From an uncultured Alphaproteobacteria bacterium (GTDB lineage: Bacteria > Pseudomonadota > Alphaproteobacteria > RF32 > CAG-239): a stretch of DNA of 64,000 bases. Positions 3,145 to 64,000 of this stretch are shown here, piece by piece; the first letter of the stretch is position 1; each line of letters opens with the position of its first letter. The translations under genes were made by a program, and so were the position numbers. Under the pieces are notes generated by a model. That model did not search any database and had not been told where the DNA came from. It saw only the letters and a list, made by a program, of their open reading frames with translations. The stretch is taken from positions 4,352 to 68,351 of the forward strand of contig CAKQRB010000052.1 of the NCBI GenBank assembly GCA_934271195.1, read 5' to 3'.

Positions 3145-3864
3145 CTATTCCTCGTTTTTAATTATCGTAAACTCGCCTTCGCCGCACACGGCTTTCATCA
3201 AAGCATTTTCTCCGGCCTGCGCAAACACAACCACAGGAATGCGATTTTCCCGCGCCAGCGCCACAGCCGCCGTATCCATAACTTTGAGCTGCTTATTGAT
3301 AACCGTGTCATAATCAATAACCTGATATTTCTGTGCTTGCGGATTTTTGAGCGGATCGCTGTCATAAACACCGTCGACCTGCGTTGCTTTCAAAATAACA
3401 TCGCATTTCATCTCAGACGCACGCAGTGCCGCCGCCGTATCGGTCGTAAAAAACGGATTCCCCGTGCCGGCCGCAAAAATGACTATCCGCCCTTTTTCCA
3501 AATGATGCAACCCTTTGCGATAAACATAATGCTCGCATACGTCGGGAATATTCAATGCCGACATAACGCGCGACGGAACCTTCAGCCGCTCCAGAGCATT
3601 CTGAATAAAAAGCGCGTTCATGACCGTTGCCAGCATCCCGACCTGATGCGCCACAACCGGCGCCATTTCTTTTGAGGCGTCTTTAGCACCGCGAAAAATA
3701 TTGCCGCCGCCGACAACGATACAAACTTCCACGCCGGCATTGGCAATCTCTTCAATCTGTCCGGCCAGAGTTTTAATGACCTCTTCCGACATTCCGTAAG
3801 GCTTATTCCCCAGCAGCCCCTCGCCGGAAAGCTTCAGGAGGATTCTTTTATATACAGGTTTCAT
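3145..3864 (-). CDS. pyrH: UMP kinase
   Basis: KRILLKLSGEGL N-terminus, amino-acid-kinase fold motifs. pyrH-frr adjacency. Start chosen at the third residue Met (MKPVYK). Confidence 0.9.
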   Translation of the reverse strand: MKPVYKRILLKLSGEGLLGNKPYGMSEEVIKTLAGQIEEIANAGVEVCIVVGGGNIFRGAKDASKEMAPVVAHQVGMLATVMNALFIQNALERLKVPSRVMSALNIPDVCEHYVYRKGLHHLEKGRIVIFAAGTGNPFFTTDTAAALRASEMKCDVILKATQVDGVYDSDPLKNPQAQKYQVIDYDTVINKQLKVMDTAAVALARENRIPVVVFAQAGENALMKAVCGEGEFTIIKNEE

Positions 3865-4057
3865 ACACATCCTTGAGCAAACATATTTTCTCTACATATT
3901 AACGTCTTTAATCGATTTGTCATCATATTTCTTCACTTTTATAAGATAAATTTTCGCTTTAACGCAAGTTATCTTCACCGCAAAAAATAATATTGAAAAA
4001 TCCGCCGGTTCGTTTTAAGTTGATAACAAATTTAAATTTCGAACAAGGAACATTTCT

Positions 4058-4693
4058 ATGACAACAGCTTTTATCTTATCGGCGCTCGGCGGTTATCTGC
4101 TCGGCTCCGTGCCTTTCGGACTGGTTTTGACTCGACTGGCAGGCTTGGGTGACATCCGCAAAATCGGTTCAGGCAACATCGGCGCCACCAATGTCCTGCG
4201 CACCGGACGCAAAGATCTGGCTTTGCTGACCGTTTTGCTCGATGCATTCAAAGCCGGTATCGCCGCCCTGATTGCCAAACATCTGGCAACCAACGAGGCT
4301 ATGATGTTTTGCGGCTATTTGACTTCCATCAACACGGTCGCCGCCTTAATCGCCGGCACCTGCGGCGTTTTGGGACACAACTTTCCAATCTGGCTCAGGT
4401 TCAAAGGCGGCAAAGGCGTAGCCTCTGCTTTTGGTTTTATTCTGGCATTATCTCCGGTTGTTGCCGGCTGCGCATTTCTGACTTGGATTATCTGCGCCGT
4501 CGTCACCCGCTATTCTTCTTTGTCGGCAATTCTGGCTGCTGCTGCTTTGCCGTTGTATGCCTATTTTTACACCTCTCCGGTTTATACAATATTCTACACG
4601 GCAATCGCTTTGCTGGTACTGATCAGACATCACGCCAACATTGCTCGTTTGATAAAAGGACAAGAAAGCAAAATCAGCTTCAAAAAGAAATAA
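4058..4693 (+). CDS. plsY: Glycerol-3-phosphate acyltransferase PlsY
   Basis: 211 aa membrane protein (LGSVPFGLV...GSGNIGATNVLRTG). Conserved plsY-dprA-topA order. Confidence 0.9.
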   Translation: MTTAFILSALGGYLLGSVPFGLVLTRLAGLGDIRKIGSGNIGATNVLRTGRKDLALLTVLLDAFKAGIAALIAKHLATNEAMMFCGYLTSINTVAALIAGTCGVLGHNFPIWLRFKGGKGVASAFGFILALSPVVAGCAFLTWIICAVVTRYSSLSAILAAAALPLYAYFYTSPVYTIFYTAIALLVLIRHHANIARLIKGQESKISFKKK

Positions 4694-19049: not shown

Positions 19050-20417
19050 ATGAAGAATATTAACACTATGCTACACATGAAACTAAACTCTGCGGTGTCA
19101 GTTTTTGCTGTTGCCGCAGCTTTCTCGGTTTTTCTCCCAACCTCCACATTTGCAGGTGTCTGCTTCCTGCCCGACTGTGCTGATGATGTACCTCTTATTG
19201 AACCAGATGTTAAATATTGTGAAAGCAACGGCTTCACCTACTATGCTGACGGCAAGTGTCCGCAATATTATGCCAATGTCGGAAAATGTTCCCGTGACGA
19301 CCATTATCTTAAATGCGACGCCGCGAAGTGGTGTAAACAAAATGGATATAACACGACCTCATGCTCCATTCCTAAATATGTTGACACTCCTTGTCCGAGT
19401 GACGGTTCTCTTTACAAACAATGCAAGACTGACAATCCCCGCGCTTGTCAGGAGGCCGGTTATACCAAGACTTGTCCTTCCGGTCAGAAACTTAAAAAGA
19501 ACTCCAGCCGTTGCTCTTATGATAATTCTTACGGAACCTGTTGTAAACCGTCAGGTTGTCCCGCTCATACTTCATTAACCTCTTCGTCCTACGGAACTAA
19601 CGGTACTGATGGCTGCGAATATACCTGTTATTACACCTGCAACATGAACTGCCCGTCCGGTACTTCAACTTCCAACCCCGGAGGTTGTGGCGGGTCGACA
19701 CGTAACGGATGTAACACAAAAACTTGTTATTATCCTTATCAATCATGCTGCACACCAAAGTGTTCAGATGAGCATGGTTGCTCATGTGGAACAACTTCCG
19801 TTTCTGACGGATGCGGCGGAACTTGTACAAAATGTAAATCTTGTTGTAATCGCTACTCTTCAAACTGGTGTTCTGTTCACTCAACCTGTCATGGAGATTG
19901 CTGCTCTGATGGAACAATAAAACCTTGTGATACGCAATGCGGGGGTTCAGGTTGCTCTACTTGTAATAGCTCCTCTTCAAACTGGTGTTCCGTTCACTCG
20001 ACCTGTCATGGAGATTGCTGCTCTGACGGATCGATCAAACCTTGTGACACACGCTGCGGCGGATCAGGTTGCTCTACCGGCGGCGGTGGCGGCGGCGAAA
20101 CGGGTGGAAGTTCTAGCTGTTCTGGATACAGCTCTTGTTCAACTGAGTGTACTGGCGTAACCAACACCACACCTCACTGTCAAAATCGTTATAATGATGG
20201 CAGCGGTTACAATTATATCGCTCTGGTATGCAATCTGAATATTTCCAGAACCCGCGTTACCTGCAACGGACAAACCGAAACTGATGGCGGTATCGCTTAT
20301 GAACAGCTAGACCGCTGGAGCACAGGCAACCAAACAAACGACATAGCAGCTTGCGAGGCAAAACGCAAAAACACGACCTGCGTCTGCTCAAGTTACCGCT
20401 GGCCATACAACTGTTAA
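19050..20417 (+). CDS. Secreted hyper-cysteine-rich protein, paralog 1 (unknown function)
   Basis: Start is set at the ATG after SD GGGAGGAAG (the ORF track begins upstream at a TTG at 19026). Sec-type signal peptide (MKNINTMLHMKLNSAVSVFAVAAAFSVFLPTSTFA), no lipobox. The mature part is very Cys-rich with many CxC/CC/CxxC spacings and is Gly/Ser/Thr/Asn rich. It carries a 39-aa tandem duplication. Paralog at 42274-43422. Confidence 0.85.
   Translation: MKNINTMLHMKLNSAVSVFAVAAAFSVFLPTSTFAGVCFLPDCADDVPLIEPDVKYCESNGFTYYADGKCPQYYANVGKCSRDDHYLKCDAAKWCKQNGYNTTSCSIPKYVDTPCPSDGSLYKQCKTDNPRACQEAGYTKTCPSGQKLKKNSSRCSYDNSYGTCCKPSGCPAHTSLTSSSYGTNGTDGCEYTCYYTCNMNCPSGTSTSNPGGCGGSTRNGCNTKTCYYPYQSCCTPKCSDEHGCSCGTTSVSDGCGGTCTKCKSCCNRYSSNWCSVHSTCHGDCCSDGTIKPCDTQCGGSGCSTCNSSSSNWCSVHSTCHGDCCSDGSIKPCDTRCGGSGCSTGGGGGGETGGSSSCSGYSSCSTECTGVTNTTPHCQNRYNDGSGYNYIALVCNLNISRTRVTCNGQTETDGGIAYEQLDRWSTGNQTNDIAACEAKRKNTTCVCSSYRWPYNC
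19857..20077 (+). repeat. In-frame tandem duplication inside Cys-rich paralog 1
   Basis: Two 104-bp units (19857-19960 and 19974-20077) separated by 13 bp, giving a 117-bp (39-codon) period and roughly 90% identity. They encode SSNWCSVHSTCHGDCCSDG(T/S)IKPCDT(Q/R)CGGSGCST twice. Paralog 2 has a single copy. Confidence 0.85.
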
Positions 20418-31312: not shown

Positions 31313-32485
31313 GTGCCAAAATTTGCTTTGATTTTAGATAAAATAATTCCGCTGATACGCAATATGCTGATTCCGGCCTTGTTGTTTGGCGGCGGACTGA
31401 TTTATTTTTTTGCCGCAGAAGAAATTCCACACGCCTCACAACTGACCCTGCACCATCTTTTTTATGCCGCGTCCTGCCTCAGCTTTCTGATTTTGCTTTA
31501 TTTTCGCAAAGGCATTGCCGTTTTCTTCATCCTGACCGGCGCTGTCAGTTATGTCTTAATCAACTATATCAAGATCACCAATCCGGCGGCTTTTCGCGAA
31601 AGCGTTGATTTCGTCAACTTGAGTGTTTTCATCCCGCTTAATTTGATAATTTTTTATTTCTGGCCGCAAAAACAGCTCTTAAAAAAGAAAAACATCTATT
31701 TGTTGCTGCTTATTTTTGCACAGTTTTCTATTGGCGAACACCTGCACAAATATAATATTGCCCTGAACTATACCCCTTTTTCCGCCAATGACAATTTATG
31801 CTTTTTAAGCTACCTGATATTTTTCGGCGCGTTGTTTTCTTTTTTCTGGAAAGCCGTCAACACCGGTAAAATTTATGATTATGCCCTGTTTTTTGCCGCC
31901 GCCGACATTTTCTTCGGCTTTTACTATGCCGACAGCACAACGGCTCTGACCTTGTTCTACAGCCTCTCCGGCATCACAATTTTAATCGCCACTATTTTAT
32001 ACATTTACACAGACACCTACAAAGACGAACTGACCGGATTTTCAAGCCGCAGCGCCTTTATGCTGCAATACCGGAACTTTCCGCTCAAATACAGCCTTGC
32101 CGTTGCCAAGATTGACAACTACATCTCGCTCAAAAACGCCTTTCGCCGCCGTGGTCTGAACAAGCTGATGAAGATGATAGCCCTGCGCATTAACGCCTGC
32201 GAAACCGAAGCCGTAATTTATCGTTACGGTGAAGACGAACTGGTTATTATTTTTAAAAACGAAGACAAAAACAATGCTTATAACAAGATGGAACAAATCC
32301 GCCGTTCCATCGCTTCGGCCTCATTCATGATGTCAAACTTCAAAAAGCCGGTAAAACTGACGCTGACCACCAGTGTAACCGAAAAAAAACGCAGTGATGC
32401 CACTGCGTTGGAAACCCTTGCCAGAACCTATAAGGCCTTGCAGGAAACAATCAAATTCAGCCAGAACGTGACCTCTAAGCTTTAA
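31313..32485 (+). CDS. Membrane protein with a C-terminal degenerate GGDEF (diguanylate-cyclase-like) domain
   Basis: About 8 TM helices in the N-terminus. The C-terminus matches the GGDEF fold landmarks (DELTGFSSRSAF… / LAVAKIDNYISLKNAF… / RYGEDELVIIF in place of RYGGDEF), so it is probably catalytically inactive. Confidence 0.6.
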   Translation: MPKFALILDKIIPLIRNMLIPALLFGGGLIYFFAAEEIPHASQLTLHHLFYAASCLSFLILLYFRKGIAVFFILTGAVSYVLINYIKITNPAAFRESVDFVNLSVFIPLNLIIFYFWPQKQLLKKKNIYLLLLIFAQFSIGEHLHKYNIALNYTPFSANDNLCFLSYLIFFGALFSFFWKAVNTGKIYDYALFFAAADIFFGFYYADSTTALTLFYSLSGITILIATILYIYTDTYKDELTGFSSRSAFMLQYRNFPLKYSLAVAKIDNYISLKNAFRRRGLNKLMKMIALRINACETEAVIYRYGEDELVIIFKNEDKNNAYNKMEQIRRSIASASFMMSNFKKPVKLTLTTSVTEKKRSDATALETLARTYKALQETIKFSQNVTSKL

Positions 32486-34045: not shown

Positions 34046-34425
34046 TACCGGCCGCAAGACGCCGATCCGTCACTGTTACAGCCTCCTGCAAAAGCGTTAG
34101 AAGACGTGCAAAGAGGGAAAAGCAAAGGAGATTTTGGTTAATTAGAATAATAGGAGCGTGGAATGAGAAAAAAGAGGAAAGAAAATAAAAAAATGCACCG
34201 GAATAATCCGGCGCATTTTTCAATTCTACTTTCCTCTCGTCCCTTTTCTCGGAACATTTTGAGAGATTTTAACTCTCTGTTCGGCAGAAATTCTGCTCCT
34301 GTCAGCTTCTACCAATTTTTGAGAAGTTCTTCTCGGAGCCAAAATCTGCATCGGTTTGGCCAAAACACCAAACTTTCGGGCAATTTTTTTTAGTTTTTCT
34401 AACATACTCTTAAATTTTAAGATTA

Positions 34426-34959
34426 TTAATATTCACAATAAACCATCTCATCAATATAAATGATATCACCATTTTGAGTACAAGTACAGATAACCTTGTC
34501 ACCCGCGCTCAATTTCTGAAGATAATAAGGAATTGCGCCATACGGCGGCAAATACCTCCCGACAATTTCTTCTTCTTCATCAAACAGAACCAAAATGGTA
34601 TTCGTACCTCGAACCAAAACTGTTCCGACACGTTCATCACCAAACACATAATCAGGAAAACGCGTCTTCAAATACCGAAAACTCAAAGAAAAACTTTTTT
34701 CCGGATCCCATCGGGTTGCAGCCTGAGGCTTATAAACAAGTTCCACCTTGTCCCCGATTTTAAACTGAGATCCAATTCCGGCAAGCGAACCAAGAACAAC
34801 CTTGCAATTTCCTCCCCTGAGCAAATCAATTGATAAGCTATCAGGAGCGCTGCTTATTTCATAAATTGTACCTTCAAAAATTTCCCCAGCCTTATATATC
34901 GGCGCATAGCATGTCAGGCACTTATGCTCCAACATCCTATATTTCATGTTTTTTTGCAT
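34426..34959 (-). CDS. Hypothetical protein
   Basis: 177 aa soluble ORF with no recognisable motifs. Downstream of the ACP-like gene pair and the small membrane protein. Confidence 0.45.
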   Translation of the reverse strand: MQKNMKYRMLEHKCLTCYAPIYKAGEIFEGTIYEISSAPDSLSIDLLRGGNCKVVLGSLAGIGSQFKIGDKVELVYKPQAATRWDPEKSFSLSFRYLKTRFPDYVFGDERVGTVLVRGTNTILVLFDEEEEIVGRYLPPYGAIPYYLQKLSAGDKVICTCTQNGDIIYIDEMVYCEY

Positions 34960-34974
34960 ATCATATCAATAAGA

Positions 34975-35403
34975 TTAATGTTTATAAAAATTCCAGATTT
35001 TAATCCACCAGCTGATTACCATAAGAACAATTATGACAAGCACAAGCCAGTCGCTCTTAAACAGTAGATAAGCCCAAATAGCAATCAGAGTAGCTCCCCA
35101 TAACAGCAGATAAATCAATCTGCGGCGATAAAAAGCCCTTACAGTCTCAAACAATGCATAACCGGCCATCAATGCCAATATAATTTCATTGCCTTCCAGC
35201 TGTTTGGCAGCAAGTACCCACAAAGTCAGAGCCATAAAACCAAAAACAATCACATTGCTGAGCAACTCATACTTTTTGATTTTTCGGGAATAATACACTG
35301 ACATACGCCGGACGTATTCCTTCTTCAATTCCCCGATTTTTCGGGTAAAAAACAGACCGGATGCCGTCAATAGCATCAGGATTGTCCACCAAATGATATT
35401 CAT
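34975..35403 (-). CDS. Hypothetical membrane protein (4 predicted TM helices)
   Basis: 142 aa hydrophobic ORF. 17 nt downstream of ACP-like gene 1. Confidence 0.45.
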   Translation of the reverse strand: MNIIWWTILMLLTASGLFFTRKIGELKKEYVRRMSVYYSRKIKKYELLSNVIVFGFMALTLWVLAAKQLEGNEIILALMAGYALFETVRAFYRRRLIYLLLWGATLIAIWAYLLFKSDWLVLVIIVLMVISWWIKIWNFYKH

Positions 35404-35420
35404 AAGTTAATAATTAAAAT

Positions 35421-35723
35421 TTATGCAACCTTCAAAACCTCACATATCGTCTGATAAGAATCAGAAACAATCTTCCATTTTTCTACCTTGGTATCATCCA
35501 ACCGCGGCAGAGAAAAAGATTTTTCAATATCCATCGCCAGTTCAATCCTGTCCAATGAATCCATGCACAAATCATCACAAAAATTACTGTCCATAGTCAC
35601 ACACTCGTCGCTGGCTTTTAGATTTTTCAATCTTTCAGAATCTTTCCAATCCTGACTCAGCTGTTTGTTAACTCTTTGGGCAATAATTCCCAACAATCTG
35701 CTTTTAATCTCATCTTTATCCAT
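35421..35723 (-). CDS. Acyl-carrier-protein-like protein 1 (phosphopantetheine-attachment DSL motif)
   Basis: Start set at the internal Met (MDKDEIKSRLLGIIAQ…), giving about 100 aa. DDLCMDSLDRIELAMDIEKSF matches the ACP DSL consensus (canonical acpP here has [21 protein letters not shown]). The long N-terminal extension in the ORF track is probably not translated. Confidence 0.6.
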   Translation of the reverse strand: MDKDEIKSRLLGIIAQRVNKQLSQDWKDSERLKNLKASDECVTMDSNFCDDLCMDSLDRIELAMDIEKSFSLPRLDDTKVEKWKIVSDSYQTICEVLKVA

Positions 35724-35832
35724 AATCTTAAATGAATTTAATATGTTAAACAATAATAATAACTTCATAATTTTTTGTATAAGAAAATATACACCATTTT
35801 CGCAAATTACACAAGATGTTTTTTCGTCCAAA

Positions 35833-35862
35833 TACAAAAAAAATGCGGCACAAAGCCGCATT
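35833..35862 (-). terminator. Rho-independent terminator after ACP-like gene 2
   Basis: On the minus strand: ATGCGGC-tttgt-GCCGCAT followed by TTTTTTTT. Immediately after the stop at 35866. Confidence 0.7.
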
Positions 35863-35865
35863 TTC

Positions 35866-36201
35866 CTAATCAAGGTCAAAAACCTCGGAAAGTTTGACGT
35901 CAGAATCCTTATTTTTCAAATATTCCAAAATATCGGCCAAAGTATAAAAGCGCTCCGCTTCATCGTCGGCAATCCGAATATCAAAAATTCTTTCAATATC
36001 CATCACCAGCTGCACCTTATCTAATGAATCCATACCCAGATCATTTTCAAAACTCGTCTCCGGAGTCAGTGTTTTTACCTCTTTGGCTCCGCCGCGATAA
36101 ACAATAAGCGATGCCAGCAAATAAAACCACTCATTCGGAATTCTGTTCTCCCGTAAATACTTTTGAACACTTTCCGGCAAATAAAAACTTAAAATCTCCA
36201 T
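35866..36201 (-). CDS. Acyl-carrier-protein-like protein 2, with an N-terminal extension of about 35 aa
   Basis: 111 aa. NDLGMDSLDKVQLVMDIERIF matches the ACP DSL motif. It has its own terminator. Confidence 0.6.
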   Translation of the reverse strand: MEILSFYLPESVQKYLRENRIPNEWFYLLASLIVYRGGAKEVKTLTPETSFENDLGMDSLDKVQLVMDIERIFDIRIADDEAERFYTLADILEYLKNKDSDVKLSEVFDLD

Positions 36202-36280
36202 AATGATAACTTTTTATATTACATAATAATCTTTTATAATGCTTCCTTATACTCTAATCCATTAATTTTTGTCAATAAGT

Positions 36281-42273: not shown

Positions 42274-43422
42274 ATGAAGAATACTAACACTATGCTACAC
42301 ATGAAACTAAACTCTGCGGTGTCAGTTTTTGCTGTTGCCGCAGCTTTCTCGGTCCTCCTCCCAACCTCCGCTTACTGTGGCGTTTGCTTCCTGCCAGACT
42401 GTGCTGATGATGATCTTGCCGGTGGCGGCGGAAACATGAATAAGAATGAAGATTCTGCTTTTTGTGAAAGCAACGGCTTCACCCACTATGCTGACGGCAA
42501 GTGTCCGCAATATTATGCCGATGCCGGAAAATGTTCCCGTGACGACCATTATCTTAAATGCGACGCCGCGAAGTGGTGTAAACAAAACGGATATAACACG
42601 ACCTCATGCTCCATTCCTCAATATGTTGACACTCCTTGTCCGAGTGACGATTCTCTTTACAAACAATGCAAGACTGACAATCCCCGCGCTTGTCAGGATA
42701 CAGGTTATACTAACTCTTGTCCTTCCGGTCAGAAGCTTAAAAAGAACTCCGGACGATGCTCTTATGATTCTTCTTACGGAACCTGTTGTAAACCGTCAGG
42801 TTGTCCCGCTTATACTTCTCTTGCCTCTACCAACTACGGAACTAACGGTACTGATGGCTGCGAATATACCTGTTATTACACCTGCAACATGAATTGTCCG
42901 TCTTCTTATCCTTATTCTTCTGATCCGACAGGTTGTTCCAACAGCACGACAAACGGATGCGGCAATAAGTCATGTTATAACTCCGTTTCATGTTGTAATC
43001 GCTACTCTTCAAACTGGTGTTCCGTTCACTCAACATGTCATGGTGACTGCTGTACTGACGGAACAATAAAACCTTGTGATACGCAATGCGGTGGCTCTGG
43101 ATGCAGCAGCTCAGGAGGAAGCTCAGGAGGGGGAGGCTGCTCAAAATACTATACTTGGCAAAGTGGACGCGTAAATGGAAACTCAGTTACATATACCTAT
43201 TCTGTTACCTGTCAATGCTCAGACGGTTCATCCCGTGACTTGGGAACAGAAACAACTTCTAGTGGTTGCTGGGATTGCGATTATTCTCATCTTTCTTGCA
43301 AAGCCGGCTGTGGTTCAAGCTGTTATCACCGCAATTCAGCCTATGCCGGTGCACCTTACTATCACTATATTGATTATTCAGGTGAAGACTATTGCAACTC
43401 CTACACCGGCGGTTCATGCTAA
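42274..43422 (+). CDS. Secreted hyper-cysteine-rich protein, paralog 2 (unknown function)
   Basis: 382 aa. Signal peptide and the first roughly 170 aa are about 85-90% identical to paralog 1. It has a single copy of the 37-aa CCNRYSSNWCSVHSTCHGDCC(T/S)DGTIKPCDTQCGGSGCS module, a Gly/Ser linker, and an unrelated Cys/Tyr-rich C-terminus. Confidence 0.85.
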   Translation: MKNTNTMLHMKLNSAVSVFAVAAAFSVLLPTSAYCGVCFLPDCADDDLAGGGGNMNKNEDSAFCESNGFTHYADGKCPQYYADAGKCSRDDHYLKCDAAKWCKQNGYNTTSCSIPQYVDTPCPSDDSLYKQCKTDNPRACQDTGYTNSCPSGQKLKKNSGRCSYDSSYGTCCKPSGCPAYTSLASTNYGTNGTDGCEYTCYYTCNMNCPSSYPYSSDPTGCSNSTTNGCGNKSCYNSVSCCNRYSSNWCSVHSTCHGDCCTDGTIKPCDTQCGGSGCSSSGGSSGGGGCSKYYTWQSGRVNGNSVTYTYSVTCQCSDGSSRDLGTETTSSGCWDCDYSHLSCKAGCGSSCYHRNSAYAGAPYYHYIDYSGEDYCNSYTGGSC

Positions 43423-59902: not shown

Positions 59903-61195
59903 TTAATGCTGGGAGGTAAAAATAACCTGCTTACTGCTGCGGCGAGAAAGCAACCTCTGAATATAGCGTCCTTGATAAAGATTAATCCCTAGCGAATTAC
60001 CGACCTCAACCGCCTGTGGTTCATCTACCCGACACAAAATCATTTTAGCCCGTTCAGCCTTGTTCACATAATCCATAAAATGTTTGTCTTCATGAATCAC
60101 ATCCATAAAAGTAGGATGCCAGATAATCTTAATCAAATCGGCATCAAGCTGCTCACGGTTCAAATACTTCAGCTTATCAACCGTAATACCATCAATACAA
60201 ATTTTATACCCGCGTGACTGGGCAAAAGTCTTGGCCAGAATAAAAGCCTTGATATCACTGAAAATATCCAATAGCTGCAACTCCAATACAATCGTCGACC
60301 GCATGGAGGCGTTAATATCCTCGTCAAACTCCAAAAACTCATCCGACAAAACTGTTGAAACATTCAGGTTAAGGCTAAAATTGCTAGTCAGAGAGCCATC
60401 GTCATGATTACTGATACTGGCCAGCACACGCTTGTCAAGCGTTTCGGTCAGATATTGAAACAACCATGGATTGGCCGTCAAATCCACGTCTGGCAAAAGC
60501 GTATCCCGCAAATCGGCAATTGAAACATAAACTTCCTCAAACAGCATTTGCGGCTCTGACTTTCCGATAATGGCACAAATGGCCTGCCGCCGAATAAGGC
60601 TGGAAAAATCCGCCATTGACAATGTTTTGGTCAGTTTACCGAGCATATAAGGCGTCAATTCGTTTTTTGAGCGAGTTGTCACCTTAGAAAAGGTCCACAA
60701 TTTGCCCTCGCCGCCGCCAGAAACCATAACCGGTTCTTTCTTTCCTGCAGCCTGTTTGCTCGCTTCGCTGGTTATCAGACGCTGAAACTCCGACATATCG
60801 GTGCGCAAGGAAAAAAACTTCAAAAAGCCAGCGGTCTCTAGATCAAAATTATCCTTTATCAGCCTGTCATCATGCAGAATAAAACGGATTTTAATAATAC
60901 ATGCCTGAATTTCTTCTTTTGCCTTTGCTCGATATATCACCACCAAATCATCATTGGGCAGAGAAAAAATCTCACCGTTGTTTTTACGGTTCAAATTATC
61001 AAAAGTATCAAGCAGCCCTTGCTTCTGAACTGTTTTAAGACTAGGGTTTTCCAGCTGGTTGATTTTAATGTAAAGAGCATTATAGTCATTAATGTCTTTT
61101 TCAATATTTTTCAGATAATCCAAAACAACCGCATCTTTTTTCAAGGTTGTTTTTTCTGCCGAAACAGGATTGGTGTTTTTTGAAAAATTAAACAT
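59903..61195 (-). CDS. Degenerate GGDEF-EAL tandem-domain protein (c-di-GMP-receptor-like), paralog 1
   Basis: 430 aa. The C-terminal half matches the EAL landmarks (NLSL…N, …ICIDGIT…, LDADLIKIIWHPTF, …MILCRVDEPQAVEVGNSLGINLYQGRYI) but lacks the catalytic EAL Glu (…LTANPW…). The N-terminal half has a GGDEF-like remnant (…NDDLVVIY…). Confidence 0.5.
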   Translation of the reverse strand: MFNFSKNTNPVSAEKTTLKKDAVVLDYLKNIEKDINDYNALYIKINQLENPSLKTVQKQGLLDTFDNLNRKNNGEIFSLPNDDLVVIYRAKAKEEIQACIIKIRFILHDDRLIKDNFDLETAGFLKFFSLRTDMSEFQRLITSEASKQAAGKKEPVMVSGGGEGKLWTFSKVTTRSKNELTPYMLGKLTKTLSMADFSSLIRRQAICAIIGKSEPQMLFEEVYVSIADLRDTLLPDVDLTANPWLFQYLTETLDKRVLASISNHDDGSLTSNFSLNLNVSTVLSDEFLEFDEDINASMRSTIVLELQLLDIFSDIKAFILAKTFAQSRGYKICIDGITVDKLKYLNREQLDADLIKIIWHPTFMDVIHEDKHFMDYVNKAERAKMILCRVDEPQAVEVGNSLGINLYQGRYIQRLLSRRSSKQVIFTSQH

Positions 61196-61198
61196 CAG

Positions 61199-62515
61199 CT
61201 ACCCTTCCAACAACTTTTCCAAAATCTCTTTCTGCGTACATTCGTCTCGAAAAGCGCCCCACAACAAACGGCGGCGTTTCAGACAAGTTTTGGCGGAACA
61301 ATATTTTGCATCGGGACATTGCTGCTGGACACAAGCCGCTTCCAGCCGATCAATCAACGGTCCCTGAAAGGTATGAAGCCCGTATTTCATACCCCAAACC
61401 AGCGCCTTATCACTGTCACATTTGGCCAAAACCACATTATCCGCCCCTAAAAACTCAACAATTTCCTTAATTCCTTCGTTTGCTACATCATATTCCATCA
61501 GCGGCTCCCAAAAAAGCTTAATCATATCCGGCTCCAGCCGCTTGAGATTCAACATATTCAACAGCGTTGGACTCATATTGTCAATCAACAGACGATGCCC
61601 GCCGGCTTTCAAAATCTCTTTCACCTTAAAATAAACCGGCAAATTGTTAAACACATCCATAAGCTGGACTTCTACAATCAGCTTTTGTCCGGGCTGTAAA
61701 AAATTTTTAGCCAACGTCACAAATTCCACAGAAAAGACAGAAGACAGATTCAAATTAAGACTGATTTGATTCGGCCAGTTCTTAATGTCTGAAGCAAAAA
61801 AAGAACTCATTGTTTTTTTATCAAGTTTTTGTGTCAGATACAAAAACAGCCAGCGGCTGGCCAGCAAATCCAACTTTCCGTCCAAATAAGAACTCAAATC
61901 CTTGACAGCAACAAAAAACTCCTGAAACTCGACCTTAAACTTCCCCGGTCCGCAAAGCTTCATCACGCTCTGGCGCTTAATGATTTCAGGAATATCAATC
62001 ATATCAAGCTGTTCCATCACCATATCGATTTCATCGGCGCGGATCGGACGCTTAACTTCGGGCTGTACGGTAATATTGGCCAGATAATCAGCATTGTCAC
62101 GCATTTTTTCAATAAAAGCGCAAAAAGAAATATAATCAGCCGGAAAAGAATAAAGAACCGCAAAATCTTTGACGTCATGACCATGTAAAACCGGATCGGA
62201 AGACAACCCCTGCCGGATTTTAAACACGGCCTCTTCAACCATACCCGACGTAATCCCCTTACCCAGAATGGCAAAATCGCCATTACTCATTACAAAGAAA
62301 GAACCCTGCGCATTACCGACCATACTGTCAAACAACTTGGCAAAAATCTTCACAAATTCCGGATGCCTGTTTTTGGGTTTCAGCTTGGAGATATTAACAT
62401 ACAACACCGAATATCCGAAAGGATTCCGTCCTATCCGGTTCAAAGCATCCAGCAAATATGTTTCGCCCATATTATTAGCAGATTTGGCCATTACTCTCCC
62501 GACAACCCCCATCAT
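61199..62515 (-). CDS. Degenerate GGDEF-EAL tandem-domain protein, paralog 2
   Basis: 438 aa. Clearly homologous to the adjacent gene (…NLNLSSVFSVEF…, …LLIDNMSP…, LEPDMIKLFWEPLM, …VVLAKCDSDKALVWGMKYGLHTFQGPLI). Has DLLASRW where EALxRW is expected and SNGDFAIL where GGDEF is expected. Confidence 0.5.
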   Translation of the reverse strand: MMGVVGRVMAKSANNMGETYLLDALNRIGRNPFGYSVLYVNISKLKPKNRHPEFVKIFAKLFDSMVGNAQGSFFVMSNGDFAILGKGITSGMVEEAVFKIRQGLSSDPVLHGHDVKDFAVLYSFPADYISFCAFIEKMRDNADYLANITVQPEVKRPIRADEIDMVMEQLDMIDIPEIIKRQSVMKLCGPGKFKVEFQEFFVAVKDLSSYLDGKLDLLASRWLFLYLTQKLDKKTMSSFFASDIKNWPNQISLNLNLSSVFSVEFVTLAKNFLQPGQKLIVEVQLMDVFNNLPVYFKVKEILKAGGHRLLIDNMSPTLLNMLNLKRLEPDMIKLFWEPLMEYDVANEGIKEIVEFLGADNVVLAKCDSDKALVWGMKYGLHTFQGPLIDRLEAACVQQQCPDAKYCSAKTCLKRRRLLWGAFRDECTQKEILEKLLEG

Positions 62516-62583
62516 ACATAACCATCAAATCATAAACTTGCTTTAGACTGATAGCAAGAACCTTTCTGAGTTTCTTCACATGC

Positions 62584-64000
62584 TTATAGCATTTTTGCCA
62601 GTTTGTCATGAAGTTCCTGAATGCTGTATGGTTTTTTCACAAAAGCCGTATTACGGTTTTCTTCCACAATTTTATTAACCTCCCGATCCTGCGTATAACC
62701 GCTCATAAAAATCGCCTTAAGCTTCGGATTTTTCAAAAGCAGTTTCTGATAAACCTCAACGCCGCTGATTTTAGGCATCACGACATCAAGCATCACCAGA
62801 TCAAAACTCCGGTCATACAAGACCAATGCCTCTTCCGGAGCATTGCACGAAACCACGTCGCATCCCAGTCGCATCAAAATGTCTTTAAGCAGTTCATTCA
62901 AAATTTTTTCATCGTCCAAAACCAGAATACGCCCGTTAAGCTTTGCCGGCTGCACAAATTTTTCCGGCTGGCAGGCTTTAGATTTTTTAAGCGGAAAATA
63001 CACATAAAACACCGTCCCCGCAGCAGAAGTTTCCACCCTGATGGTTCCTTTGTGCTCCCGAACAATACCATAAACCGCAGCCAAGCCGAGCCCCGTTCCT
63101 TTTCCGGTTTCCTTGGTCGTAAAAAACGGTTCAAAAATATTATGCAAAATCTTCTTGTCAATCCCTCGTCCGGTATCCCCGACCGAAAGCTCCAGATACC
63201 GCCCCGCCCTGACTTTCAAAAGACATGCCGAAATTTTTTCCTCATCCAGCATCACGGCCTGTGTTGCAATCGTCAGTCTGCCGCCCGCGGGCATGGCATC
63301 TTTGGCGTTAAAACCCAAATTAAGCAAAAGGCTCTGCAGATAATTCTTATCCCCGTAAATACAATAATTGTTTTTTTTGTTTGTCACGGAAATCTCAATA
63401 TTTTTCGGCACGCCGTGCTCAAGCAGACACACTGCGTCATCTATTGTTTCCTTGATATTAATGTCTTCAAAATTCTTCTCTCTGTCACGGGCAAAAACTA
63501 AAAGCTGCGACGTCAAATAAGCCGCTCTTTTGCAGGTCCGGATAATAATGTTCACATATTTGCCGTCACTTTTCTCGTCTTTCTGCAGCCTGATAAACTC
63601 GGCCGCTCCCTGAATCCCCGCCAGCATATTATTAAAATCATGCGCCACGCCGCCTGCCAGCCGTCCGAGGGATTCCATCTTTTGCAAATGGCTCAACTGC
63701 GCCGCCTTTTTTTGAGCCTGTTTATTCCTCCACACCACCAGCACCAGCAGCATCAGTAAAAACAACATGGCGCCAAGGACATAAGGGCTGTATTTTTCCA
63801 CCAGAGCCTCCCAGTGCAGATATTCAATATTCTGCCATTGTGAACGAATCTGCCAATGCTGCTCGGCATCGATTTTTTTCATAACGGCGTTTATATCCTG
63901 AAGCAATCTCTCATTTTCCGGCATGACGGCAAATCCGAACTCATAAGCCGACCCGACCACCGGCGCCACATAGAACAAACGGTCCAGTCCCAAACGGCTC
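62584..64000 (-). CDS. Hybrid sensor histidine kinase with a C-terminal receiver domain; partial, N-terminal periplasmic solute-binding-type sensor domain runs off the window end
   Basis: HisKA H-box (GGVAHDFNNMLAGI), HATPase_c (…GTGLGLAAVYGIV…) and a REC domain (ILVLDDEKIL…DLVMLDVVMP…). The frame stays open to the window edge. The first residues (LFYVAPVVGSAYEFGFAVMPENERLLQDINAVMKKI) resemble the end of an SBP_bac_3 domain, followed by a TM helix. Confidence 0.8.
   Translation of the reverse strand, partial: SRLGLDRLFYVAPVVGSAYEFGFAVMPENERLLQDINAVMKKIDAEQHWQIRSQWQNIEYLHWEALVEKYSPYVLGAMLFLLMLLVLVVWRNKQAQKKAAQLSHLQKMESLGRLAGGVAHDFNNMLAGIQGAAEFIRLQKDEKSDGKYVNIIIRTCKRAAYLTSQLLVFARDREKNFEDINIKETIDDAVCLLEHGVPKNIEISVTNKKNNYCIYGDKNYLQSLLLNLGFNAKDAMPAGGRLTIATQAVMLDEEKISACLLKVRAGRYLELSVGDTGRGIDKKILHNIFEPFFTTKETGKGTGLGLAAVYGIVREHKGTIRVETSAAGTVFYVYFPLKKSKACQPEKFVQPAKLNGRILVLDDEKILNELLKDILMRLGCDVVSCNAPEEALVLYDRSFDLVMLDVVMPKISGVEVYQKLLLKNPKLKAIFMSGYTQDREVNKIVEENRNTAFVKKPYSIQELHDKLAKML

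Follow-up and report, generated by a model that had tools for sequence, protein, structure and literature searches.

Two divergent acyl carrier protein paralogues maintained beside acpP-fabF-mltG in an uncultured alphaproteobacterium, one of them heading a putative operon of binder-like proteins

Few bacterial proteins have been studied as thoroughly as acyl carrier proteins (ACPs), extra copies of which normally signal a dedicated lipid or polyketide pathway. Mitochondrial ACP also acts as a subunit, via LYR proteins, in complex I, in Isd11-Nfs1 and with mitoribosome assembly factors. The specialised ACPs described from Alphaproteobacteria are AcpXL, for the very-long-chain acyl group of lipid A, NodF, for Nod factor, RkpF, for capsule, and AcpR, for sphingolipid (PMC9386255); they are encoded with FabZ/FabF paralogues and with LpxXL, NodE, RkpA, or AasR and serine palmitoyltransferase. 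Ralstonia solanacearum has five ACPs (PMC9542644) and Pseudomonas aeruginosa three, of which Acp1 and Acp3 are the extra ones (PMC5686131, PMC6158461). P. aeruginosa Acp3 acts by binding, repressing the catalase KatA (PMC6158461), and the divergent mitochondrial ACP (mACP) of Plasmodium works without its prosthetic group (PMC8547962). Here we analyse two further ACP genes, ACP1 and ACP2, which lie next to a housekeeping acpP-fabF-mltG cluster in a 64,000-nucleotide (nt) stretch of DNA, called the window below, from an uncultured Alphaproteobacteria bacterium (RF32; CAG-239; assembly GCA_934271195.1, contig CAKQRB010000052.1, positions 4,352-68,351).

All genes of the locus are on the minus strand, in the order acpP (38851-38618), fabF (38508-37231), mltG/YceG (37231-36281), ACP1 (36201-35866) and ACP2 (35723-35421). 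A six-frame hidden Markov model (HMM) scan of the window found exactly three ACP-like open reading frames (ORFs): acpP, ACP1 and ACP2. The first encodes a housekeeping AcpP of 77 amino acids (aa), with 139.7 bits on NCBIfam model NF002151 (cut-off 92). ACP1 (111 aa) scored 37.5 bits on Pfam PP-binding (PF00550; gathering score 20.8), and ACP2 (100 aa) 17.2 bits, under the same cut-off. On the NCBIfam acyl-carrier subfamily model NF002148, ACP1 scored 70.1 bits (E 1e-19) and ACP2 47.4 bits (E 1.3e-12), neither reaching the curated cut-off of 71; nor did their 62 and 37.1 bits on TIGR00517 reach its cut-off of 70.45. Family profiles of both matched dozens of bacterial and mitochondrial ACPs with solved structures in the PDB, at E 1.2e-14 for ACP1 and, with ACPs of fatty-acid synthesis and of mitochondria, at E 7e-13 for ACP2. 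The matches of ACP2 to NF002148 and to PDB ACPs are far beyond chance. The preliminary description of this DNA, made from the sequence alone, had reported two tandem ACP-like genes with intact DSL motifs, and these matches bear it out for both ORFs. The motif's serine, whose lack of conservation in orthologues had been named as one possible refutation, is invariant in 12 of 12 aligned relatives of ACP1 (Ser59) and 10 of 10 of ACP2 (Ser56). ACP1 and ACP2 are real paralogues of AcpP, the carrier of type II fatty-acid synthesis; selection maintains them, and both keep the attachment serine. From established knowledge of ACPs, the conserved serine in its D/L context implies phosphopantetheinylation, and the phosphopantetheinyl transferase of the cell itself probably turns both proteins into their holo form; no gene for such an enzyme was identified in the scanned part of the window.

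Compared with housekeeping AcpP (TIGR00517/NF002148-NF002151), the two proteins are alike in that it is their best-scoring family, that the D-S-L serine starts helix II, that both are small and acidic (pI 4.4 and 4.7 for the pair), and that their genes lie beside acpP-fabF-mltG. Their closest plasmid-borne and PDB relatives are also housekeeping AcpPs. They differ from it in scoring under the curated cut-offs, in carrying basic residues at positions 39 and 48 (Escherichia coli numbering), in the N-terminal extension of ACP1 and the insertion of ACP2, and in evolving faster; identity to the AcpP of the window is 36% for ACP1 and 32% for ACP2 over aligned columns. A gene of the housekeeping acpP type is the likely ancestor of the extra copies.

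The acidic recognition residues of helix II are D35, D38, E41, E47 and E48 in E. coli, with roles known from the E. coli and Bacillus subtilis ACPs. Neither paralogue has the acidic helix II of housekeeping AcpP. That of ACP1, DSLDKVQLVMDIERIF, has K/R at position 39, R/K at 48 and Q at 41, and that of ACP2, DSLDRIELAMDIEKSF, has K/R at 39 and R/K at 48, each pattern being conserved within its family. Helix I of ACP1 is unusually hydrophobic (EWFYLLASLIVY) and is accompanied by a genuine, conserved N-terminal extension of 22 aa (MEILxFxLPxxVxKYLRExxIP), which is confined to the narrower clade of the window. ACP2 is atypical through a variable insertion of 16-20 aa in loop 1, between helix I and the DSL motif. 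In its AlphaFold2 model, which is poor (predicted local distance difference test score, pLDDT, of 62), the helices follow the expected order, helix II begins at Ser56 and the insertion is disordered. A Foldseek search with this model returned ACPs as the top three matches, the top two being mitochondrial, all non-significant at E 0.8-3. The basic helix II residues of both proteins, together with Q41, the hydrophobic helix I and the extension of ACP1 and the insertion of ACP2, imply that the partners of fatty-acid synthesis have been lost and others gained, and that ACP1 and ACP2 probably no longer serve the fatty-acid synthase.

Atypical N-terminal regions had been noted for both proteins in the preliminary description, with an extension of about 35 aa for the second. 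This holds for ACP1. The apparent extension of ACP2 resolves into a conserved non-coding leader upstream of the gene and the loop 1 insertion within it. The longest ACP2 ORF, as listed, has 152 aa and starts from a TTG at 35879, which is at the 5' edge of the ACP1 terminator and upstream of the putative ACP2 promoter, and the homologues are called at 96-100 aa, beginning MD/NKxEIK. A longer ACP2, from the TTG or from MKLLLL, was ruled out by the nucleotide-conserved leader and by in-frame stops in L010, one of the related loci compared here (L001-L012 and L014). Owing to the same nucleotide-level conservation, and to the stops at the L010 equivalent, the in-frame MKLLLLFNILNSFKI is leader rather than N-terminal extension. 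By this comparison, the ACP2 protein is 100 aa long and starts at the ATG at 35723 (MDKDEIK).

Downstream of ACP2 are three more minus-strand genes, encoding a basic membrane protein of 142 aa (34975-35403), a 177-aa protein (34426-34959) and a very basic protein of 59 aa (pI 11.8; 34226-34405); the five genes from ACP1 onwards (34226-36201) are called the island here. Selection was measured as the ratio of non-synonymous to synonymous substitution rates (dN/dS), at synonymous distances of 0.3-2. All five island genes gave values of 0.11-0.31, with 0.11-0.28 for ACP1, 0.22-0.28 for ACP2 and 0.17-0.31 for the 59-aa protein. For seven neighbouring genes (ettA, acpP, fabF, mltG, ybjN, lgt and a GGDEF gene) dN/dS was 0.00-0.10, so that selection on the island is 5-15 times more relaxed than on these neighbours; acpP itself is 99-100% identical in relatives (dN/dS <=0.02). 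The island reading frames are intact in every lineage. The island is fast-evolving but under purifying selection.

Transcription signals divide the island into two units. ACP1 has its own putative sigma-70 promoter, read from the sequence (36246-36275; TTGACA at 36275-36270, an 18-nt spacer and TATAAG at 36251-36246), with the -35 box and the TATAA core conserved in five of five lineages aligned. It also has its own intrinsic terminator, a 13-bp stem followed by a T-run (35837-35867), which is conserved in relatives with altered stems. With a putative promoter and a terminator of its own, ACP1 would be monocistronic. Separate transcription of the two ACP genes, with a terminator between them, had been proposed from the outset, and both parts of that proposal stand. 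In the more distant lineages L008 and L009, a segment of about 60-70 nt that is missing from the window lengthens the 5' untranslated region of ACP1; the promoter boxes are conserved, the length of the leader is not.

The putative ACP2 promoter (35786-35814; TTGTGT, a 17-nt spacer and TATATT), also read from the sequence, has a -35 box too weak for a consensus scan, and both of its boxes are conserved in five lineages. Only 15-20 nt lie between one gene and the next from ACP2 through those for the membrane, 177-aa and 59-aa proteins, and the four share this promoter and a closing intrinsic terminator with a 15-bp stem (34188-34221). ACP2 thus appears to head a four-gene operon, co-transcription being inferred from spacing and signals; the 59-aa gene, which the preliminary description did not mention, belongs to this unit.

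The leader between the ACP2 promoter and the start codon (35724-35779) is AT-rich and lacks a Shine-Dalgarno sequence. Its nucleotides, with cores TTATTGTTTAAYA and CATTTAAGATTATGGA, are far better conserved than those of the adjoining coding sequences, and this conservation extends across lineages in which synonymous sites are saturated. Equivalents were found in L006-L010, and in L010 the leader is still recognisable at island protein identities of about 35%. No RNA structure was predicted in the leader (-1.75 kcal/mol, no covariation), and the core motif occurs once in the window. The leader may be a site of translational or transcriptional control, conceivably through the S1-like protein of the operon described below.

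The island is lineage-specific and restricted to one clade of uncultured gut Alphaproteobacteria. Among 5.8 billion proteins there are 12 clusters for ACP1, 7 for ACP2 and 7 for the 177-aa protein. An exhaustive HMM search of 1.84 billion representatives added three further distant relatives of the 177-aa protein, giving 10 in all; none was found in JGI metagenomes or in IMG/VR. The genomes with island matches are all metagenome-assembled genomes of uncultured gut Alphaproteobacteria, from human (MGYG-HGUT-04444) and mouse (MGBC133411) and in two BRZ bins. NCBI labels one ACP2 homologue 'acyl carrier protein' and one homologue of the 177-aa protein 'hypothetical protein'. The same five-gene order, between mltG and ybjN-lgt, occurs in those close relatives for which a contig covers the whole island (L001-L005, L009 and L014), and tblastn found all five genes in L006-L009. 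In the typical alphaproteobacterial cluster of Sphingomonas, fabD-fabG-acpP-fabF-mltG, no ACP follows mltG.

The three distant relatives of the 177-aa protein (L010, L011 and L012) lie at the same chromosomal position, with proteins only about 35% identical. They keep the core order of ACP2-like protein, membrane protein, 177-aa protein and small basic protein, as far as covered by the L011 contig, which starts inside the island and leaves the ACP2 position outside. Because the core order is kept at so low an identity, a functional link of ACP2 to its uncharacterised neighbours is supported. The number of ACPs at the locus is variable, with 2 to 5 copies among related lineages. After the small basic protein gene, L012 carries a tandem of four further ACPs (1580-2888), which brings its total to five, L010 carries two more that are intact (array 3501-4534), and L011 has one further ACP-like gene. 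An 88-aa ACP-like gene inside the L010 operon (L010:3501-3767) has D-D-E in place of D-S-L. The further copies share 19-62% identity with each other over aligned columns. For every island copy the best model is of AcpP type, with scores that grade from 103 down to 22 bits, as expected from repeated duplication of acpP. By these comparisons, acpP duplicates come and go at the locus in a birth-and-death process, around a core of four genes that stays fixed.

For the three other proteins of the core, no family of Pfam or NCBIfam scored above its cut-off, and PADLOC and PHROGs gave nothing meaningful. As first reported, a membrane protein and a 177-aa protein follow ACP2; the membrane protein has five hydrophobic segments by hydropathy, in four lineages, rather than the four transmembrane helices originally given. 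Across five lineages it is invariant at M, A, A, G, W, W and Y alone, and no charged, polar or nucleophilic residue is invariant. The 59-aa protein has a conserved C-terminal G-x-R-G-K/Q motif.

The AlphaFold2 model of the 177-aa protein (pLDDT 74) consists of two small beta-barrels. Its Foldseek matches, at E 4e-5 to 1e-3, include bS1 (E 3.6e-5), the CvfB-like SP_0946 and the cold-shock domains of Unr, and further the S1 domains of the exosome and RNase II, the di-Mop domain of ModE and the double-OB domain of Mpa. The TM-scores are low (0.25-0.39), which is expected for two mobile domains. The sole PDB sequence match of the family profile was ribosomal protein S1, at a non-significant E of 1.7; no Pfam match was obtained at E <=1, the S1 domain PF00575 included, and no internal sequence repeat was detectable. 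The model thus suggests a tandem S1/OB fold, which is one for binding and not evidently that of an enzyme. No island protein looks like a synthase, ligase, acyltransferase, thioesterase or phosphopantetheinyl transferase.

Three other readings of these neighbours were rejected. The order of a 177-aa protein and a 59-aa basic protein near fab genes resembles yceD-rpmF; there was no DUF177 or L32 Pfam match, and the 177-aa protein is modelled as a tandem OB. The Mpa OB matches and the C-terminal RGK/RGQ recall Pup-Mpa; the peptide is basic, not acidic, the flanking regions examined contain no ligase or proteasome genes, and the likeness was judged a coincidence. A phage or defence origin was also rejected: PADLOC gave nothing meaningful, PHROGs gave generic phage ACP families only, and there was no relative of the OB protein in IMG/VR and no plasmid match to the locus.

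Taken with the syntenic link, the non-catalytic appearance of the proteins apparently co-transcribed with ACP2 points to a complex subunit rather than a shuttle of a locally encoded pathway. The earlier proposal of specialised carriers feeding a local pathway with their neighbours is therefore partly supported: the link of ACP2 to those neighbours is kept, and an acyl, aminoacyl or glycolipid modification pathway formed by them finds no support, as the island contains no recognisable enzyme. Our preferred reading, tentative and at slightly less than an even chance, is that ACP2 belongs, as a subunit or a ligand bearing the prosthetic group, to a small membrane-associated complex with the other proteins of its operon, and that ACP1 is a stand-alone variant for the same module. 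ACP2, possibly acylated, would join the membrane, S1/OB and basic proteins in this complex, and ACP1 would serve the module on its own, as would the other extra copies.

Several points weigh against this reading. Segment 3 of the membrane protein carries a semi-conserved E/D/N, and the 177-aa OB protein has invariant D45, C52, E73, K98, E109, Y136, D154 and C158, so that an unrecognised enzyme could be hidden among the hypothetical proteins of the island. The AlphaFold2 models are moderate (pLDDT 74) or poor (62), and that of ACP2 has no significant fold match. Known specialised ACPs are usually encoded beside their partner enzymes, yet some, P. aeruginosa Acp3 among them, are not.

A functional parallel to such a subunit is mitochondrial ACP, which is likewise of alphaproteobacterial-type ancestry and is used as a binding subunit, a use that for the island ACPs would be a functional analogy only. 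The serine-less copy of L010 is another point of likeness, and the ACP1 and ACP2 profiles count mitochondrial ACPs among their best sequence matches in the PDB. The island differs in having no LYR-motif protein, as judged by eye. The multi-ACP genomes of Ralstonia and Pseudomonas are similar in having several paralogues of which one alone serves fatty-acid synthesis. They differ in that the island paralogues are clustered beside acpP, in 2 to 5 copies, one of them fixed with non-enzymatic proteins. Up to five acpP-derived copies at one locus, one of them fixed in an operon whose other products resemble binders and not enzymes, depart from what extra ACPs normally signal. If the carriers are regulatory or structural subunits, a role documented mainly in mitochondria would extend to bacteria. 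A bolder extension of the complex reading, by analogy and decidedly improbable as it stands, is an undescribed, non-biosynthetic ACP module in which acylation-dependent docking of one or more acpP-derived paralogues onto the membrane, tandem S1-like RNA-binding and basic partners would couple fatty-acid or acyl-ACP status to an RNA, translation or envelope process. If true, this would be a bacterial analogue of mitochondrial ACP-LYR signalling that arose in an alphaproteobacterial lineage, with its ACP copies under birth-and-death turnover.

The best-surviving alternative to the complex, although unlikely, is that ACP1 and ACP2 are specialised carriers acting in trans, loaded and unloaded by enzymes encoded elsewhere, with the downstream proteins unrelated or accessory. 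Candidate enzymes would be a lipid A secondary acyltransferase, an acyl-ACP synthetase with serine palmitoyltransferase, or a polyketide-type synthase. The conserved serine and the acidity of both proteins are as in working carriers, ACP1 is monocistronic, ACPs for lipids outside fatty-acid synthesis are well documented (NodF, AcpXL, RkpF, AcpR; PMC9386255), and multi-ACP bacteria exist, with five copies in Ralstonia and three in P. aeruginosa. However, ACP2 stays linked to one set of three non-enzymatic genes even in deeply diverged relatives, and 2-5 copies with one lacking the serine would be unusual for a fixed biosynthetic pathway. Nor was a partner enzyme found nearby. Within about 10 kb in syntenic relatives, the Pfam-annotated genes are fabF, YceG, YbjN, LGT, GGDEF, QueA, KdsB, EttA and PPDK only, with no FabZ/FabF paralogue, LpxXL-type acyltransferase, ligase or serine palmitoyltransferase, and there is no adenylating enzyme beside ACP1 or ACP2. 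Among the window proteins of no assigned function that were scanned, only EAL-like proteins, a histidine kinase and an M50B-like peptidase were recognised, and no carrier partner enzyme. If the carriers are donors for an unknown envelope lipid, the locus would point to an uncharacterised surface modification in a common uncultured gut lineage.

Less probable still is that the ACP-like proteins are scaffolds independent of the prosthetic group, which purely bind proteins and keep the serine for structure only. The L010 copy with D-D-E in place of D-S-L, still an intact ORF inside the operon, agrees with this, and there are precedents in Plasmodium mACP (PMC8547962) and in the binding of KatA by P. 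aeruginosa Acp3 (PMC6158461). Against it, the serine and its flanking D and L/M/I are present in all other copies examined (12 and 10 family members and seven further paralogues). Retention of this context at 20-40% identity argues for selection on the attachment site itself.

Membership of a known specialised carrier family (AcpXL, NodF, RkpF, AcpR, DltC, or an aminoacyl carrier working with amino acid:carrier-protein ligases) is very unlikely. The host is an alphaproteobacterium, and several such families were described in that group (PMC9386255). Like them, ACP1 and ACP2 are extra stand-alone ACPs beside a housekeeping AcpP, are more divergent and presumably use the same holo-ACP synthase. 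By family models and gene neighbourhood they look different. No NCBIfam ACP model, those of DltC, AsbD, AcpM and the OlsHI ACP included, reached its cut-off for ACP1 or ACP2, and the AcpP-type models were always best, the others lying far under their cut-offs. For ACP1 the two DltC models gave 17.2 bits (cut-off 68) and 13.5 bits (cut-off 52) and AsbD 27 bits (cut-off 100), and the OlsHI ACP model had no match to either protein at E <=1. The ACP-related protein TIGR04069 of the 'ocin' class of ribosomally synthesised and post-translationally modified peptides was rejected at 20.6 bits (cut-off 70). The closest plasmid-borne and PDB relatives being housekeeping AcpPs also speaks against a known specialised family. 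The defining partner genes are not adjacent; in their place, the conserved neighbours are the membrane protein, the tandem S1/OB protein and the basic peptide. The earlier view that the pair does not look like the AcpXL cluster is supported, and it does not look like the NodF or RkpF systems either.

That the genes are decaying duplicates or spurious ORFs without function is scarcely credible and is effectively refuted by dN/dS: the low GC content of the island (37-40%, compared with 45-50% in the flanking genes), the absence of a recognisable Shine-Dalgarno sequence from all five of its genes (acpP and fabF carry GAGG) and a protein divergence 5-15 times faster than that of neighbouring genes would suit decay, but all five genes are under purifying selection with frames intact in every lineage, the promoters, the terminator and the leader are conserved, and the functional motif is invariant.

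Two further features of the window were noted away from the island. Cysteine-rich paralogues on the plus strand, at 19050-20417 and 42274-43422, are 72% identical over about 300 aa and have near-identical, signal-peptide-like N-termini; a Pfam scan of the 19050-20417 protein gave no family. One of the two adjoins the ftsZ end of the cell-division cluster, and the other lies downstream of ettA. Two proteins of about 430 aa each, encoded in tandem on the minus strand at 59903-63924, gave EAL matches of 29.6 and 30.4 bits, below the threshold of 31.3, and come after a hybrid histidine kinase/response regulator; a GGDEF protein is encoded at 31313-32485. The 59903-63924 region is a cluster of divergent cyclic-di-GMP signalling genes.

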